A stretch of 64,000 nucleotides of DNA from Nitrospirota bacterium (GTDB lineage: Bacteria; Nitrospirota; JACRHL01): assembly GCA_029881725.1 (NCBI GenBank), contig JAOUMB010000004.1:26729-90728 (forward strand). The letters are read 5' to 3'. The notes under the pieces are model-generated. The model saw only the letters and a list, made by a program, of their open reading frames with translations, ran no database searches and was not told the DNA's origin. Positions within the stretch are counted from its first letter, which is position 1, and each line of letters starts with the position of its first letter. Of the stretch, positions 18,238 through 27,569 are shown piece after piece. The translations under genes were made by a program, and so were the position numbers.

Positions 18238-18540
18238 ATGCCGATATACGAATATCAATGTGAAAAGTGCGGGCACCTATTCGATGCCATCCAGAAGTAC
18301 ACCGACGACGCCCTGACCGACTGTCCCGAATGTGACGGCAGCGTGTCACGCTTGGTGTCCACCCCCGCCATCCAGTTCAAGGGCAGCGGTTTCTATATCA
18401 CCGACTACCAGAAGTCCGGCGGCTCTGGTGTGGCCAGCAGTGCCAGCGGACCCGGCAGTTCCGACAGCGGGAAAAAAACCACCGGAAAAAAAGCGGCCAG
18501 CAAAAAGGCTGGCGGCGGCAAGAAGACCGGCTCCACCTGA
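18238..18540 (+). CDS. FmdB-family zinc-ribbon protein with a Lys/Gly-rich tail
   Basis: MPIYEYQCEKCGH ... CPECDG CxxC pairs typical of the FmdB family. Confidence 0.7.
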   Translation: MPIYEYQCEKCGHLFDAIQKYTDDALTDCPECDGSVSRLVSTPAIQFKGSGFYITDYQKSGGSGVASSASGPGSSDSGKKTTGKKAASKKAGGGKKTGST

Positions 18541-19909: not shown

Positions 19910-21058
19910 TCACACACGGGGCCGCTTGGGCGCTGGGGTGTAACTTCCCAGCACCACAGGCTGTCTGGCGCCGGTCACCCGGGGCAGGTTGCCCGGCTCG
20001 CCCCACAGGTGGCAACAGGCAAGCTCCGCGAAGGCCACCGCCTCCAGGCTGTCGGAGGCCACCCCGTAACGTTCCACCGCCCACACCCGGGCGCGGGGCA
20101 GGGCCGCTTCCAGCATTCCCATCAGGGTGCTGTTTTTAGCGCCTCCACCGCACAGCAGAACGTGGGCCCGCGCCGTACACCCCTCCACCGCACGGGCAAT
20201 GCTGTGGGCAGTCAGGGCGGTGGCGGTGGCCACCAGATCATCCCCCTTGACCCCGCGCTCGTCGGCGCGGGCCACCAGGGCATTGACATACTGTTTTCCG
20301 AACAATTCGCGACCGGTGGACTTGGGAGGTGGCGCCGAAAAAAACGGATGGGCGAGCAGTTCCTCCAGCAGAGGGATGCTGGTTTCCCCCCGGGCGGCGC
20401 GAGCACCATCCCGGTCAAACAACTCCTGCCCGCCGGTCAATCCAGCCACCAGGGCATCCACCACCATGTTGCCGGGGCCGGTGTCGAAGGAAACCACCGA
20501 GTCGGCATCGCGTCCGGCAGGCAGCCAGGTCAGATTGGCAATGCCGCCCACGTTGACCACCACCCGGTCGCTCTGCGCGTCGGACAGTAGCAAATGGTGG
20601 AGGCGCGGCGTGAGCGGCGCCCCCTGTCCGCCGTGGGCCAGATCCGCGGAGCGGAAGTCGGACACCACCGCAACGCCGGAGCGCGCCGCCAGATGGGACG
20701 CGGAACCCAGTTGCAGGGTGGATGGGGGGGTGGCGTCGGGCGCATGCCACACGGTCTGCCCGTGGGAGCCGATCACGTCCACCTGCTCCGCCGATACCCC
20801 GGCTCCCTTCAAAAGAGCCTCCACAGCCTCCGCAAAGGCCTCTGCGAGCGATGCATCCAGCAGACAGAGGTCGCGGCTGGTTGCCTCCCCCCCGGCGGCG
20901 TTCAGCACCCGGGCGCGCATGCGGGGCTGCATGGGAAGTTCCACGTAGTGACGCAACGTCACCGTGCGCGGTTCCCGGGTGACGGAAACCAGCGCCGCGT
21001 CGATGCCATCGGCAGAGGTGCCCGACATCAGCCCGATGGCCAGCAGAGTATCTTTCAT
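19910..21058 (-). CDS. anmK: anhydro-N-acetylmuramic acid kinase
   Basis: N-terminal GLMSGTSADGIDAALV motif and AnmK-family length of 382 aa. Confidence 0.9.
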   Translation of the reverse strand: MKDTLLAIGLMSGTSADGIDAALVSVTREPRTVTLRHYVELPMQPRMRARVLNAAGGEATSRDLCLLDASLAEAFAEAVEALLKGAGVSAEQVDVIGSHGQTVWHAPDATPPSTLQLGSASHLAARSGVAVVSDFRSADLAHGGQGAPLTPRLHHLLLSDAQSDRVVVNVGGIANLTWLPAGRDADSVVSFDTGPGNMVVDALVAGLTGGQELFDRDGARAARGETSIPLLEELLAHPFFSAPPPKSTGRELFGKQYVNALVARADERGVKGDDLVATATALTAHSIARAVEGCTARAHVLLCGGGAKNSTLMGMLEAALPRARVWAVERYGVASDSLEAVAFAELACCHLWGEPGNLPRVTGARQPVVLGSYTPAPKRPRV

Positions 21059-21678
21059 TCCAGCCGATGCCGAATGGTGAACAGCACCCGGGCCACATCC
21101 TCATCGCCCAGGTATTCGTTGGTCAGGGACAGGCCGGTTCGCCCATCCTTAAGTTCCGCCCCGAACAGTTCCATCCAGGCGTGCTGGTCCACCACGTCAT
21201 AGTAGAGATCTCGGGACAGGGCGCCGTTGCTGACGCGCAGGCGGATGGTCTCGGACAGCCGCAGCCGGACGCTGGGCGTACTCCGGCGCAAACCGTTCGC
21301 GTCCGCCTCCCCCTCGGGCGCCGCCGATCCGGTCAGCGAAAAATCGGTGGTGCGCAACCGCTCCACCGAACCCAGAACGCTGTCGCTTTCAGCCCAGGAG
21401 CGGAGCATATCGCTCAATTCCCGCTGCGCCATGCGCTTGGCCACGGAACGCCGTCTGGCGGCCCACTCCTCGGAATCCTCTCCCAGGGGAGGCACCATTT
21501 CCGATAGCTGATAGTGACTGACGGTACCGTCTCCCTGGTCACCGGTAATGCGCTGGTGCAGGAGGTCGGCGTCATTCTGGGCCTTTGCCGCCCCCGGAAC
21601 CGCCAGCAACAGGGCCAACACGGCCATACCGCAGCGTGCGGCCAGAAAGATCTGTCCTTTGATTCGTGCGTGGGGCAT
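21055..21678 (-). CDS. exported or signal-anchored hypothetical protein (about 207 aa)
   Basis: Start moved to MPHARIKG (ATG at 21678 by residue offset and base indexing) to avoid a long overlap with the upstream gene. Hydrophobic segment AVLALLLAVPGAAKA. 4-nt overlap with anmK. Confidence 0.45.
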   Translation of the reverse strand: MPHARIKGQIFLAARCGMAVLALLLAVPGAAKAQNDADLLHQRITGDQGDGTVSHYQLSEMVPPLGEDSEEWAARRRSVAKRMAQRELSDMLRSWAESDSVLGSVERLRTTDFSLTGSAAPEGEADANGLRRSTPSVRLRLSETIRLRVSNGALSRDLYYDVVDQHAWMELFGAELKDGRTGLSLTNEYLGDEDVARVLFTIRHRLE

Positions 21679-21719
21679 CTCTCGCCCAGCATACCAGACG
21701 GCATGAATCCCGCCAGGGA

Positions 21720-23603
21720 TCACTCCCCGGCCGTGCGCATCCGCGAGAAATATGCCTGCAACAGGCGATAAAGGGCGAGGCGCCGTCCCTCGCGCACCGG
21801 CAGTTGCACCTGCCATGCACCCTCGTGGGTACGCAGCATCAGCCCGCCGCCCTGGGGCGCCTTCTCGGGCAGCAGATCACATGCCTGCACGGCATCCAGC
21901 GGCATATCCAGCTTGCCGGAGGACAACAACAGCACCAACCGTCGACTGCCGACGATGATGCCGGCGGTCTTCAGCGTGCCCGCCTCGTCTCCCTTCACCT
22001 CGGCGATCTTCGCCCCCTGGCGGAACAGCCCATCCCGGTCGGCGAAGTACAGCACCCGCCCTTCCATGGTGCGGTGATGGTTGAACTTGACCCGCTCGGC
22101 ACTTTTCGGGCTGCGGTACATGCCCAATCGCTTGAGGCCGGCCAGCAGTTCCCGCTCCGCCTCCCGCGACCAGGCGTGGATGGGCGTGCCGCAGTATCCA
22201 CAGCGGTTGCGCATCACCGATTGCAACGAACGGCAGCGGCCACAGGCCACCTTGAGCAGGGTGTGGCACTTGGGACAGGCCTCGGTGGTGCTCATCACCG
22301 AAATGCCGCAATGGGGGCAATGAACCGGCTCCTTGCGCAATCCCTCCAGCGCCTCCGGCGGCACCGACGGCGGGCCGGGATCAGCGGCTCGCGTGTCCTG
22401 CCGCGGATGGGAATGGGAAGGTTCGCCGGTTCCCGCCTGCTCCGGCTGGGTATCCGGGTGGGTCATCGGTTCCGCCGAGGCGGCAGGGGCCCAGTTCGGA
22501 GGAATCGGATCGGTGGGCAGGGCACGCGGATCGTCGTATCGCTCCGTTTCGGATTCGGAGGCCAGGCTGAAGGCAATCTGCGGCGACGGCATGGTAACCG
22601 TGCGGGCCGGGTACGGCGCCGGGGCGGAGCGCCCGCGGGTTCCGCGCGTGCCGCCCGAATAGCCCGGGGCCGGATCCGCGGCGCCGAAGGTGGCCGCCGG
22701 GGCCAACCCATCGGGCCAGTCACCCTTGGACGTTTTTTCTTCCGTTTCCAGGTAATCGTAGTAGTGGTAGGAGGAACTGGAGTGCTCCATGTCGGAACAG
22801 GCCTGAGTGACCTCGGCAAAATCCACGTAGCGGGCCCGGTTGCTGTGCCCGACCACCAGCGCCAGATCGGCCACCGCACAAATCACCCGCGGACAGCCTT
22901 GGGAAAAACGGTAAATGCCCTGCATGGCCATGTCGGTGAACAGGGGCCGCTCGGCGCCCGCCACCGCCAGCCGGTGGTGGATCAGGTTGCAGGTATCCAC
23001 CTGATTCAGGTTGCGCAGCATGAAGCGCACCGGCAACCGCTGCCAGAATTCCGGGAAGGACCGCACCGCGGCATCCAGCGGAGCCTGCCCCGACAGGATA
23101 AAGCCGAGCAGAAATTCACCGGAGGAGCAGAAATTGAGCAGGATGCGGAACTCCTGAAGCAGTTCCGGCTGTTCCGCCATCATCTGGCCCTCGTCCACGA
23201 TCACCAGATTGCGCATGCCGCGGGCATGGCACTCCTTCAGGTGGTCACGCAGCAGGTTGATGTCGTGGACCTTGTCCCCACGCACCCCTTCCACGCCAAG
23301 CTGGCGCGCAATCTCGGCCACCATCTGGGCCGGGGTCATGGTCGGATAGTCCAGATAGGCGATGCGGATCTGGTTCCGGGTCTCCTCCACCAGATGCTGC
23401 ATCAGCAGTTGCAAGGTGGTGGTTTTGCCGTCTCCGGCCTCCTCGGAGATCAACAAGGCCCCGCCCTTGCCGGAATGAATGGCGTACTTGAGACGCATCA
23501 GGCACTCGCGGTGCTGATCGCTCAAATAAAACAGCCTTGGATTCGGCGCCAGGGAAAATGGCGCCTCTTTCAGGCCCCAGTACTGCAAATATGCGGGAAG
23601 CAT
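21720..23603 (-). CDS. ExeA/GspA-like AAA+ ATPase fused to a Pro-rich linker, a double zinc ribbon and an uncharacterised C-terminal domain
   Basis: N-terminus LQYWGLKEAPFSLAPNPRLFYLSDQHRE...GKGGALLISEEAGDGKTT (ExeA/MshM type with Walker A) and Walker B (LVIVDEGQ). Then CPHCG...CPKC...CGRC...CGYCG (four CxxC pairs) and a ~150-aa C-terminal domain. No TM helix. Confidence 0.6.
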   Translation of the reverse strand: MLPAYLQYWGLKEAPFSLAPNPRLFYLSDQHRECLMRLKYAIHSGKGGALLISEEAGDGKTTTLQLLMQHLVEETRNQIRIAYLDYPTMTPAQMVAEIARQLGVEGVRGDKVHDINLLRDHLKECHARGMRNLVIVDEGQMMAEQPELLQEFRILLNFCSSGEFLLGFILSGQAPLDAAVRSFPEFWQRLPVRFMLRNLNQVDTCNLIHHRLAVAGAERPLFTDMAMQGIYRFSQGCPRVICAVADLALVVGHSNRARYVDFAEVTQACSDMEHSSSSYHYYDYLETEEKTSKGDWPDGLAPAATFGAADPAPGYSGGTRGTRGRSAPAPYPARTVTMPSPQIAFSLASESETERYDDPRALPTDPIPPNWAPAASAEPMTHPDTQPEQAGTGEPSHSHPRQDTRAADPGPPSVPPEALEGLRKEPVHCPHCGISVMSTTEACPKCHTLLKVACGRCRSLQSVMRNRCGYCGTPIHAWSREAERELLAGLKRLGMYRSPKSAERVKFNHHRTMEGRVLYFADRDGLFRQGAKIAEVKGDEAGTLKTAGIIVGSRRLVLLLSSGKLDMPLDAVQACDLLPEKAPQGGGLMLRTHEGAWQVQLPVREGRRLALYRLLQAYFSRMRTAGE

Positions 23604-23719
23604 GACCCCTCTCAGTCAAGCGGCGGATACAGGTCCGCACAAAGGTGAAAGGTACCAAAGAGATGCAAATCCCGCAAATCGGGCCGGGTGCCATAACGGA
23701 CTGAACAGGACACGCCCAT

Positions 23720-26364: not shown

Positions 26365-27569
26365 GCGCCCTCGGCTGGTACCCGGGAGCCGTCGTTGGAC
26401 GGCACCGGGGCGGAAAAATGCACCGGTTGGGGCGTAGGGCCACTATCGGCAATGATGAGATCGTGGATCAGGTCCACCAGGCTGACCACCTCCACCTCCC
26501 CTTTCACGGCCACCGGGGAAAACGCCTCCTGGCAGTGGACACACTCCACCACCATGCGCTGGGCCCCGGCGTCCGCGGCCATGTCCAGCCGGTCCCGACG
26601 CAACTTCAGCAGTTGTTCGGGGTTCACGCCAAACTGGTGATGCCCGCAGCAGGGGGCGGCGGCGCCGCTTAGCGGCATCTCCACCATGGCGCCCAGTTGC
26701 CTCAGCACCCGGCGCGGTTCCTCTCCCTCCCCCAGCTTGCGGCTGGTGTGGCAGGCATCGTGAAAGGTCATGGTGCCGGCGAAGTGCCGGAGCGGAAAGC
26801 GGTGCAGGTTCCGGCGAATCCAGCTGGAAACGGTGACCGGGGTGAATGGCGTGTCGTACACGGCGGCGATGCGCGACAGGGCCGCGTAACATTCAGAGCC
26901 GCTGACCACCACCTCCCTGGGCGCCACCTTGCCGATGCGACCGGCCACATGGGCCATCATCTCCTCGGCCCGGGTCAGGTCGCCGGCCATGTAGTGCCCC
27001 CACCCGCAACAGGAGGTGAGCCCGCCCAGCACCTCGTATCCGGTTTTCAGATAATCGGCGATGTCCAGCACCTTGGCAGCCATGCCGGTTTCGGAGAAGA
27101 TGGTGCAGCCAAAGAAAAACAGGGTGTCGGCCGGTTGCAGGCTGCGCTTGTCCGCATGCTGGGCCAACTGTCCAAGACGGCCCCGGTTTTTCAGGTTGTG
27201 CACCGCCACGCCCACCTTCCGCCCCACCGACTTGCCAGGGCCAAAGGTTTCCAGGCGGAAATACTCCCGCGGGCGCGGGTCCATGCGGCTCCGCAGCCAC
27301 AGCACCATGGCGTCACGCTCCAGGCCGGTGGGACAGACTGGTACGCACAGGCCACACTGGGTGCATTCGGCGGCAAACCGGGCAATCTCTCCCTGGGGAG
27401 GGTCCCCGGCAGAGGTGGCCTGGTTCAGGTCGGCAATGCGCAGGGATGGCGGTGCCACCGGGCACACGCGCAGGCACTCACGGCAGCCGATGCAGGCGGC
27501 CAGCCCGGTGGCGACCTTTTCCCGAAGGGTTTCGCGGAGGATGCCCATGCCCTGTGTTCCCTGTACCAA
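26361..27569 (-). CDS. Fe-S oxidoreductase with 2x[4Fe-4S] ferredoxin motifs and CCG domains (HdrD/GlcF/GlpC-like)
   Basis: CIGCRECLRVCP and CTQCGLCVPVCP clusters followed by Cys-rich CCG-type motifs (SCCGW, PCCGHH). 4-nt overlap with the downstream FAD oxidoreductase. Start could be M1 or M8. Confidence 0.7.
   Translation of the reverse strand: MVQGTQGMGILRETLREKVATGLAACIGCRECLRVCPVAPPSLRIADLNQATSAGDPPQGEIARFAAECTQCGLCVPVCPTGLERDAMVLWLRSRMDPRPREYFRLETFGPGKSVGRKVGVAVHNLKNRGRLGQLAQHADKRSLQPADTLFFFGCTIFSETGMAAKVLDIADYLKTGYEVLGGLTSCCGWGHYMAGDLTRAEEMMAHVAGRIGKVAPREVVVSGSECYAALSRIAAVYDTPFTPVTVSSWIRRNLHRFPLRHFAGTMTFHDACHTSRKLGEGEEPRRVLRQLGAMVEMPLSGAAAPCCGHHQFGVNPEQLLKLRRDRLDMAADAGAQRMVVECVHCQEAFSPVAVKGEVEVVSLVDLIHDLIIADSGPTPQPVHFSAPVPSNDGSRVPAEGA

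Follow-up and report, generated by a model that had tools for sequence, protein, structure and literature searches.

The subject of this study is a gene on the reverse strand of a 64,000-nucleotide stretch of DNA (positions 26,729 to 90,728 of contig JAOUMB010000004.1, Nitrospirota bacterium assembly GCA_029881725.1), referred to below as the window. Judged by sequence comparison, its 627-aa product belongs to the ExeA/GspA/MshM branch of AAA+ ATPases and is cytoplasmic throughout; in it, the ATPase module is followed by an acidic linker, a predicted double zinc ribbon, and a C-terminal domain with a modeled PH-like fold (Table 1). The family to which it belongs has no characterized member, and the most fitting description of it is a variant of the ExeA/MshM kind, not a new kind of system. 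We tentatively propose, in the knowledge that the proposal may well be wrong, that the protein is an AAA+ switch, soluble and MshM-like, whose target is type IV filament or envelope machinery.

The N-terminal AAA+ Module

The ATPase matches Pfam AAA_22 (E 1.2e-17) and contains the ExeA-type motif YWGLKEAPFSL (residues 8–18), a Walker A sequence, AGDGKTT (residues 56–62), and a Walker B sequence, VIVDEGQ (residues 134–140). Its alignment with Aeromonas caviae ExeA shows 33% identity over residues 5–280 (BLASTP E 5e-44), takes in the N-terminal signature and the GxPR motif, and extends to residue 317. The A. caviae exeAB locus, which was reached by tblastn of PLSDB and served as the reference for ExeA, has a 571-aa open reading frame (ORF) with AAA_22, GspA_C39-like (1.9e-14), and PG_binding_1 (9e-11) domains, followed by an ORF with a T2SSB domain, and to judge from these domains is a textbook exeAB pair. 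The record that contains it (NZ_AP026896.1, 4,236,312–4,255,106; locus L094, with 18 annotated features) is entitled "Aeromonas caviae plasmid pKAM479_3," is 4.94 Mb long, carries a chromosomal exeAB, and appears to be a chromosome entered as a plasmid. GspA of Escherichia coli K-12 was also tried as an ExeA reference and was rejected as too divergent or degenerate, giving no significant alignment and no match to TIGR03015.

In NCBIfam, the best match of the window ATPase is to TIGR03015 ("PEP-CTERM ATPase," ExeA-like), which is covered over nearly the whole profile by residues 5–273 (E 1.2e-42), but the score of 146 bits lies below the curated cutoff of 324.5. A. caviae ExeA reaches 271 bits on the same model and, because a genuine ExeA scores higher than the window ATPase, the match reflects shared superfamily membership only.

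In an alignment of 32 sequences from several phyla, conservation of the AAA module is very high (about 55%), and the N-terminal YLxYWGLxxxPFSLxPxP motif, together with Lys60, Thr61, Asp137, Glu138, Asn157, Arg189, Arg193, and Arg239 (the PR239 motif), is invariant. Since the catalytic residues are invariant across phyla, the ATPase of this family is presumably active. The AlphaFold2 model of the module has a predicted local distance difference test score (pLDDT) of about 85–95, and the nearest folds found by Foldseek are those of ORC/Cdc6 and TnsC (E 4e-11 to 1e-8), with target-normalized TM-scores of 0.65–0.71 for TnsC. Among solved structures these lie nearest to the module, but the identities are only 13–19% and the window ATPase has neither the winged-helix domain nor the transposon context of these proteins. 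No ExeA-type ATPase domain was found in the Protein Data Bank (PDB) by sequence or among the 50 fold matches listed by Foldseek, and a full-length profile compared with PDB sequences gave only zinc-ribbon and weak Cdc6 matches.

The assignment of the protein to the cytoplasm is based on a Kyte-Doolittle scan, which detected no membrane-spanning hydrophobic stretch among the 627 residues. The 19-residue maximum of 1.49 falls inside the AAA core and the maximum beyond residue 280 is 1.15, compared with values of about 1.8–3.0 for relatives with a transmembrane (TM) helix in the same scan. The GspA_C39-like and PG_binding_1 domains were not found in the protein in Pfam searches at an E threshold of 0.1.

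The Linker, Zinc Ribbons, and C-terminal Domain

The linker opens with a family-specific motif, (S/D)xHY(Y/F)xYL, in which His280 and Tyr281 are invariant. It is rich in proline and alanine (25 Pro, 20 Ala) and acidic (pI 4.7), and the approximately 140 residues that follow the HY motif are predicted to be disordered (AlphaFold2 pLDDT <50). An extended linker is found in members of the Nitrospirota/Leptospirillia type, whereas that of most other relatives, whose typical length is 525–550 aa, is much shorter.

Four CxxC pairs follow, beginning at residues 429, 443, 454, and 468 (CPHC-x10-CPKC-x7-CGRC-x10-CGYC). All eight cysteines and their spacing, C-x2-C-x10-C-x2-C-x7-C-x2-C-x10-C-x2-C, are invariant in the 32-sequence alignment, and Pfam DZR (PF12773) matches 23 of 23 aligned members, with a best value of 9e-11; the match of the window ATPase itself (7.6e-6) scores 26.4 bits, slightly below the cutoff of 27.3. 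On this evidence the segment is a double zinc ribbon, for which zinc binding is predicted.

The remainder of the protein has a recognizable PH/GRAM-like fold in the AlphaFold2 model of residues 420–627 (mean pLDDT 90.9), which combines a helical hairpin with an 8-stranded β-sandwich whose cap is a long C-terminal helix (model residues 186–205). The top Foldseek matches in the PDB are mostly PH, GRAM, and GLUE domains at a probability of 1.0, including those of Btk, Lam6 (GRAM-like), Vps36 (GLUE), the myotubularins (MTMR), DAPP1, and FACT. The β-sandwich capped by a C-terminal helix is common to the window protein and the Btk PH, Lam6 GRAM-like, Vps36 GLUE, and myotubularin GRAM domains, but the identities are 8–18%, the TM-scores on the target are 0.44–0.60, and Pfam gives no match. 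Zinc fingers next to a PH-like fold bring to mind the PH-TH unit of Btk and the GLUE domain with NZF fingers of Vps36 in ESCRT-II; this is a resemblance only, and the zinc ribbons of the window ATPase differ in preceding the fold, being neither inserted in it nor placed after it. In the segment where zinc ribbons and PH/GLUE-like fold adjoin (21723–22328 of the window, residues 426–627), seven family members give weak matches of the RanBP/NZF type.

A sequence profile of the C-terminal domain has no match in the PDB and, when run with HMMER against 1.84 billion representative proteins, retrieved 41 proteins, of which those inspected belonged to the same family or were fragments of its members. 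By this measure the PH-like domain, which has no Pfam model, is specific to the family. In the window ATPase both parts of the tail are basic (pI 10.1 for the PH region and 9.0 for the DZR); the PH region has a pI of 9–11 in most homologues and is acidic to neutral (pI 5–7) in several members of the Latescibacterota type.

Much of this architecture had been described in an earlier, sequence-only reading of the same DNA. The 627-aa ORF with its ExeA motif and Walker A and B sequences, the N-terminal domain of the ExeA/MshM type, the lack of the TM helix and peptidoglycan-binding domain that a genuine ExeA possesses, the Pro/Ala-rich acidic linker, and the interpretation of the CxxC pairs as a double zinc ribbon are all borne out by the results given above. 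The same reading did not recognize the architecture as characterized and, in agreement with this, searches of the literature and the PDB found no characterized protein that combines AAA, zinc ribbon, and PH-like domains. Its description of the final ~150 residues as an uncharacterized domain is correct with respect to sequence matches in Pfam and the PDB, but needs to be amended with respect to structure, where AlphaFold2 and Foldseek make a PH-like fold recognizable.

Distribution of the Family and Variation of Its Tail

The window ATPase is 100% identical to a database protein labeled only "AAA family ATPase [Nitrospirota bacterium]," which derives from a Nitrospirota metagenome-assembled genome (MAG), and 234 homologues are detectable in a protein database search. 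A scan of one genome per species yielded 144 relatives, and 80 loci were kept for comparison. The family is present in at least nine phyla, most of them uncultured, and nearly all of its carriers are MAGs; no viral relatives were found in IMG/VR. The loci of the AAA subfamily, for which the motif PEFWQRLP is a marker, come from Nitrospirota/Leptospirillia, Nitrospinota, Acidobacteriota, Gemmatimonadota, Latescibacterota, Glassbacteria, and Zixibacteria, and further from Planctomycetota/PVC, Thermodesulfobacteriota, and deltaproteobacteria of the Syntrophorhabdus type. In a neighbor-joining tree of the N-terminal domain, constructed without support values, the family forms a long-branched clade separate from ExeA, and the clade of the window protein is sister to an acidobacterial clade whose genes adjoin pil genes.

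The tail varies much more than the ATPase module to which it is attached. Most members of the AAA subfamily have DZR and PH, those from Acidobacteriota have three ribbons and PH, those from Nitrospinota have PH without DZR, and those from Planctomycetota, at about 300 aa, have no tail. In the deltaproteobacterial branch, the tail consists of a strongly predicted TM helix (Kyte-Doolittle 2–3) and an SH3_3 domain; in the loci of this Deltaproteobacterial/Syntrophorhabdus group (L080–L089, e.g. L085, 2245–3798), the helix lies at about residues 337–356 and the bacterial SH3_3 domain is C-terminal. This form would recreate the topology of ExeA with a different, presumed wall-binding domain. The exchange of tails within the same AAA subfamily argues that the tail is an exchangeable localization module on a conserved ATPase engine. 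A tail-less form comprising only the AAA module, from a PVC-group MAG (L075, 7985–9022), is encoded two genes upstream of mreB.

Type IV Pilus Genes beside Relatives of the Window ATPase

When the flanking ORFs were clustered across the 80 loci, no neighbor was found to be universal, but a type IV pilus theme recurs. In an acidobacterial/Holophagae clade the gene order is pilB (MshEN+T2SSE), pilT, pilC, a histidine kinase gene, a σ54 response regulator gene, the ATPase gene, and ppdK, and this order is seen again in 6 further loci. In a Glassbacteria-like clade, a gene for a GAF-MshEN-T2SSE ATPase is divergently adjacent to the family gene in 12 genome loci, and downstream of the family gene are genes for an N-terminally TM-anchored 214-aa protein, a PHP-like protein, an FGE-sulfatase/TPR protein, and a TPR protein; this cluster (L091, 7380–16814, and also L026, L035, L037–L039, L042, L043, L045, L046, L052, and L064) may be an uncharacterized, PilB-centered module. 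Two further MAG loci, L077 and L078, have an MshEN-T2SSE gene two genes downstream of the family gene. Histidine kinase and response regulator genes beside the short forms L062 and L075 represent nonspecific similarity of the NtrC type and were left out of the pilus evidence. From a rough estimate of a handful of PilB-like genes per genome, the chance that one would fall inside a given 12-kb interval is about 1–2%, and three or four independent pil-adjacent lineages are therefore more than would be expected by chance.

The Glassbacteria-like cluster also bears on the labels of the genomes concerned. MAGs including L026, L035, L038, L042, and L052 are labeled as Glassbacteria, Gemmatimonadales, and even "archaeon," but their GAF-PilB proteins are about 77–82% identical and their gene order is the same, so that at least some of these taxonomic labels must be wrong. 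In another type of context, the family gene of an acidobacterial locus (L019/L006) has a pair of genes for M16-family peptidases just upstream, and an M16-family peptidase gene recurs upstream in a Gemmatimonadota/Zixibacteria clade (L063–L074), which may represent conserved context or coincidence.

Comparison with ExeA, MshM, and Other Relatives

Canonical ExeA is a bitopic protein whose periplasmic domain binds peptidoglycan and which, together with ExeB, is needed for the ExeD secretin to assemble (PMC4098917, PMC9239104). The AAA+ module of the window ATPase is homologous to that of ExeA/GspA from end to end, with the N-terminal signature (Y..FGL.E.PFS..PNP), the Walker A and B sequences, and the PR motif all included, and ExeA resembles it also in matching AAA_22 and, below threshold, TIGR03015. 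However, the window ATPase lacks the TM helix, the GspA_C39-like and PG_binding_1 domains, and an ExeB/GspB partner, has a DZR and PH-like tail in their place, and is not accompanied by type II secretion system (T2SS) genes in the window. Because only the ATPase module is common to both, the window ATPase is not a GspA/ExeA in the functional sense.

MshM (VC0403) is not known to have a periplasmic part, or a DZR or PH tail beyond its AAA domain. It would differ from the window protein in lacking the tail, and the window gene differs in not being part of a pilus operon. Both are ExeA-type ATPases, and MshM, like relatives of the window protein, is encoded beside an extension ATPase with an MshEN domain. 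The two were set side by side by description, and by this analogy MshM appears to be a nearer counterpart than ExeA. In Vibrio cholerae, the gene for MshM, a homologue of ExeA, lies next to mshN and mshE (order mshM-mshN-mshE) within the operon of the MSHA pilus (PMC4624765), and mshM is a mandatory gene in the MSH model of MacSyFinder (PMC6668835).

An ExeA-domain protein has also been linked to type IV pili in Pseudomonas aeruginosa, where the gene for PA14_66580 (PA5037) adjoins pilMNOP and its mutant makes fewer pili and twitches less than normal, with PilQ multimers like those of the wild type (bioRxiv 10.1101/372805). This phenotype fits a role other than secretin multimerization. The organism and gene context differ from those of the window ATPase, and the likeness is one of description.

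Proposed Function

AAA+ proteins of the ORC/Cdc6 and TnsC families behave as switches or matchmakers and are not known to thread substrates. Since the fold of the AAA module resembles that of these proteins, whose manner of working is established, the module may by analogy form an ATP-dependent oligomeric switch or assembly factor rather than an unfoldase. The mostly basic DZR-PH tail, on its flexible tether, would serve as a targeting module that recruits the ATPase either to a partner protein or to the inner membrane on its cytoplasmic side. The client would be a type IV filament machine, either a type IV pilus or a type II secretion-like system, that is assisted or gated by the ATPase, and a likely working partner would be an extension ATPase of the PilB/MshE type, as is suspected for MshM in the MSHA operon. 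The best clue to function is that ExeA-type ATPases repeatedly occur together with MshEN-domain extension ATPases, both in Vibrio and in three of the lineages examined.

A more specific form of this proposal, which we regard as speculative and rather doubtful, is that the family represents an unrecognized cytoplasmic accessory of the type IV filament machines of Acidobacteriota, Nitrospirota, Gemmatimonadota, Latescibacterota, and related uncultured phyla. As an ORC/TnsC-like switch, it would dock through its zinc ribbons and PH-like domain either at the membrane or on the MshEN domain of PilB/MshE, and would gate pilus assembly.

Several observations weigh against a role in type IV filament function. 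In V. cholerae, MSHA piliation was not lowered when mshM was deleted (PMC4624765). In tblastn searches of the 64-kb window itself, neither PilB, PilT, or PilC (E 1e-8) nor GspC/D/E/F/G/H (E 1e-4) was found. Pilus adjacency is restricted to about 21–26 of the 80 loci, from only about three to four lineages; in a second acidobacterial clade the order is histidine kinase, response regulator, ATPase, and ppdK, with pilBTC not directly upstream, and in the clade of the window protein, Latescibacterota, and Gemmatimonadota the neighbors are unrelated housekeeping genes. With respect to the tail, the acidic to neutral PH regions (pI 5–7) of several Latescibacterota-type members argue against an anionic lipid or nucleic acid as a universal ligand.

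Genes Surrounding the ATPase Gene

The window ATPase gene sits in a co-directional, envelope-maintenance string, in which a ChaN/PDZ gene lies upstream and the gene for a 207-aa protein, anmK, and rseP lie downstream. The coordinates of the principal features are collected in Table 1. The identification of anmK is supported by a score of 425 bits on the NCBIfam equivalog NF007148, compared with a cutoff of 387. The 207-aa gene begins 41 nt past the stop codon of the ATPase gene and overlaps anmK by 4 nt (21055–21058), and the same overlap is present in L003 (8590–8593), L005 (8391–8394), and L010 (6642–6645). This suggests that the 207-aa gene is translationally coupled to anmK, the gene for a peptidoglycan-recycling kinase, rather than to the ATPase gene.

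Table 1. Positions in the window of the ATPase gene, the predicted domains of its product, and adjacent genes
Feature	Position	Strand	Basis
ATPase gene, 627 aa	21720–23603	(-)	Stop codon 21720–22; ORF list
ExeA-type AAA+ module, residues 1–275	22779–23603	(-)	Pfam, NCBIfam, BLASTP, alignment, AlphaFold2
Linker, residues 276–425	22329–22778	(-)	Composition, AlphaFold2, alignment
Double zinc ribbon (predicted), residues 426–473	22185–22328	(-)	CxxC positions, alignment, Pfam DZR
C-terminal PH-like domain (modeled), 154 aa, residues 474–627	21723–22184	(-)	AlphaFold2, Foldseek
Gene for 207-aa clade-specific protein	21055–21678	(-)	ORF list; context only
anmK (anhydro-N-acetylmuramic acid kinase)	19910–21058	(-)	Pfam AnmK 1.7e-113; NCBIfam NF007148; context only

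The 207-aa protein has a basic N-terminal region, a hydrophobic core (Kyte-Doolittle maximum 2.19 at residues 10–28), and a ...PGAAKA↓QN site, and on inspection its hydrophobic segment resembles a signal peptide with a cleavage site more than it does an anchor. It has no match in Pfam, NCBIfam, or PADLOC or, as a profile, among PDB sequences, is not similar to ExeB (BLASTP E 34) or GspB (E 31), and shows no similarity to the product of the conserved +1 gene of the Glassbacteria-like clade; a tblastn search with ExeB found nothing in the window (E 1e-4) or in any fetched locus. Only six homologues are found, all in one clade of the Nitrospirota/Leptospirillia type in which about 14 kb are collinear, comprising genes for FabF, CbiA, a CCG/Fer4 protein, a pyridine-nucleotide oxidoreductase, ChaN/PDZ, the ATPase, the 207-aa protein, AnmK, RseP, an aminotransferase, and CoaD. 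Because this whole neighborhood is syntenic in the clade, the adjacency of the ATPase and 207-aa genes is uninformative. Neither the 207-aa gene nor anmK adjoins the genes of ATPase homologues in Acidobacteriota, Gemmatimonadota, and Latescibacterota.

The ATPase gene has a sequence resembling a ribosome-binding site, GAGAGGGG, 4 nt upstream of its ATG. In a scan of the region at 18.5–25.3 kb for promoters and terminators, the counts were at background level. A σ54 promoter for the gene was considered and rejected: three one-mismatch matches occur in the window, compared with 2.8 expected, and none is near the gene, while an upstream TGGCAC in the window and the region between pilR and the family gene in the acidobacterial locus L092 both have the wrong spacing. 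A 660-aa frame rich in Arg, Gly, His, Gln, and Pro (21666–23648, forward strand) lies antisense to the ATPase gene and is a shadow ORF of DNA with 65% G+C, not a gene. At 18238–18540 on the forward strand is a gene for a small FmdB-type zinc-ribbon protein (Zn_ribbon_8 as annotated in syntenic loci) with a low-complexity tail rich in Ser, Gly, and Lys, and this gene is kept at the same position in all related MAG loci.

Alternative Explanations

The sequence-only reading had interpreted the ATPase and the 207-aa protein as a repurposed, two-gene ExeAB-like module with the latter as a membrane-anchored partner resembling ExeB/GspB. The arrangement on which this was based is confirmed by the ORF coordinates: the genes are co-directional, with the 41-nt spacing and the 4-nt overlap with anmK that had been reported, the 207-aa protein has a single N-terminal hydrophobic segment, the pairing is kept in five related MAG loci, and the tblastn results agree with its statement that the window has no type II secretion or MSHA genes. 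The interpretation itself now appears improbable. The conserved overlap is with anmK, the presumed anchor is more like a signal peptide that would be cleaved, neither a T2SSB domain nor similarity to ExeB/GspB is found in the 207-aa protein, and its six homologues are confined to a wholly syntenic clade and absent beside family members in four other phyla, among them those from Acidobacteriota, Gemmatimonadota, and Latescibacterota. The term "repurposed" is also too strong because a soluble ExeA homologue, MshM, exists and relatives of the window ATPase still sit beside type IV pilus genes. The neighborhood could be read differently, as evidence for a local role, unrelated to pili, in which a cytoplasmic ATPase acts in envelope maintenance or peptidoglycan recycling with AnmK, the site-2 protease RseP, and ChaN/PDZ. 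This is consistent with the preservation of the string from ChaN/PDZ through the ATPase, 207-aa protein, and AnmK to RseP in six related MAG loci and with the action of canonical ExeA on peptidoglycan-embedded assemblies (PMC4098917). It is nevertheless unlikely, as the arrangement is confined to one clade and absent in other phyla, the ~14 kb of synteny includes unrelated genes for FabF, CbiA, an aminotransferase, and CoaD, and the gene spacing suggests translational coupling of the 207-aa gene and anmK only.

The remaining alternatives are suggested by relationships of the protein rather than by its neighbors. A DNA-directed switch like ORC/Cdc6, TnsC, MuB, or TniB, whose zinc ribbons and basic PH-like domain would attach to nucleic acid, for instance during pilus-mediated DNA uptake, in chromosome transactions, or in regulating genes, would account for the structures that come closest to the AAA module, namely ORC/Cdc6 and TnsC bound to DNA, for the basic tail, and for the presence of PH domains of the FACT/Rtt106 type among the fold matches; plasmid relatives with AAA_22 also adjoin transposases of the IS481 type. 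However, the sequence is far closer to ExeA (E 6e-38 by tblastn and 5e-44 by BLASTP) than to the transposon-associated relatives (about 1e-14), Pfam reveals no known DNA-binding domain, winged-helix or other, some members have a tail that is not basic, and the gene, which has no relatives in viral contigs and no transposase or integrase nearby, has a stable, syntenic chromosomal position; a function of this kind is thus also unlikely, if anything a little more so than a local role in the envelope. The TIGR03015 match could be taken to indicate an ATPase associated with the XrtA/PEP-CTERM (exopolysaccharide/exosortase) system, but the score is far below the cutoff, a genuine T2SS ExeA scores higher, and no exosortase or exopolysaccharide genes occur among the Pfam-annotated neighbors in any lineage examined, which makes such an association very improbable. 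Least credible of all is an anti-phage defense NTPase of the STAND or AAA type with the zinc-ribbon tail as effector or sensor: weak, sub-threshold Pfam similarity to nSTAND NTPases (E 0.007–0.04) is outweighed by the absence of a meaningful PADLOC match (best E 0.056), the syntenic, housekeeping context, the lack of viral relatives, and a conservation of the AAA module across phyla (~55%) that is untypical of defense genes. A soluble, MshM-like switch for type IV filament or envelope machinery therefore continues to be our tentative preference.

Implications

Irrespective of its client, the family has consequences for annotation. The label "general secretion pathway protein A," which some sources give to its genes, is over-specific, and the PH-like domain is new and has no Pfam model. 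The gene is also a candidate accessory gene for the pilus loci of poorly studied phyla. The family offers a clean handle on what MshM and the ATPase domain that ExeA/GspA has in the cytoplasm do; the studies of MshM and PA14_66580 left the roles of these two proteins open (PMC4624765, bioRxiv 10.1101/372805). In the window protein, the ATPase is isolated from the membrane and cell-wall parts of ExeA and coupled to a different, structurally predictable targeting module, and the forms with DZR and PH, with TM helix and SH3, with PH only, and without a tail constitute a natural domain-swap series for finding what the ATPase acts on. If the family does prove to be an accessory switch of pili, it would expose the action of the cytoplasmic ATPase domain of ExeA, GspA, and MshM uncoupled from peptidoglycan binding.

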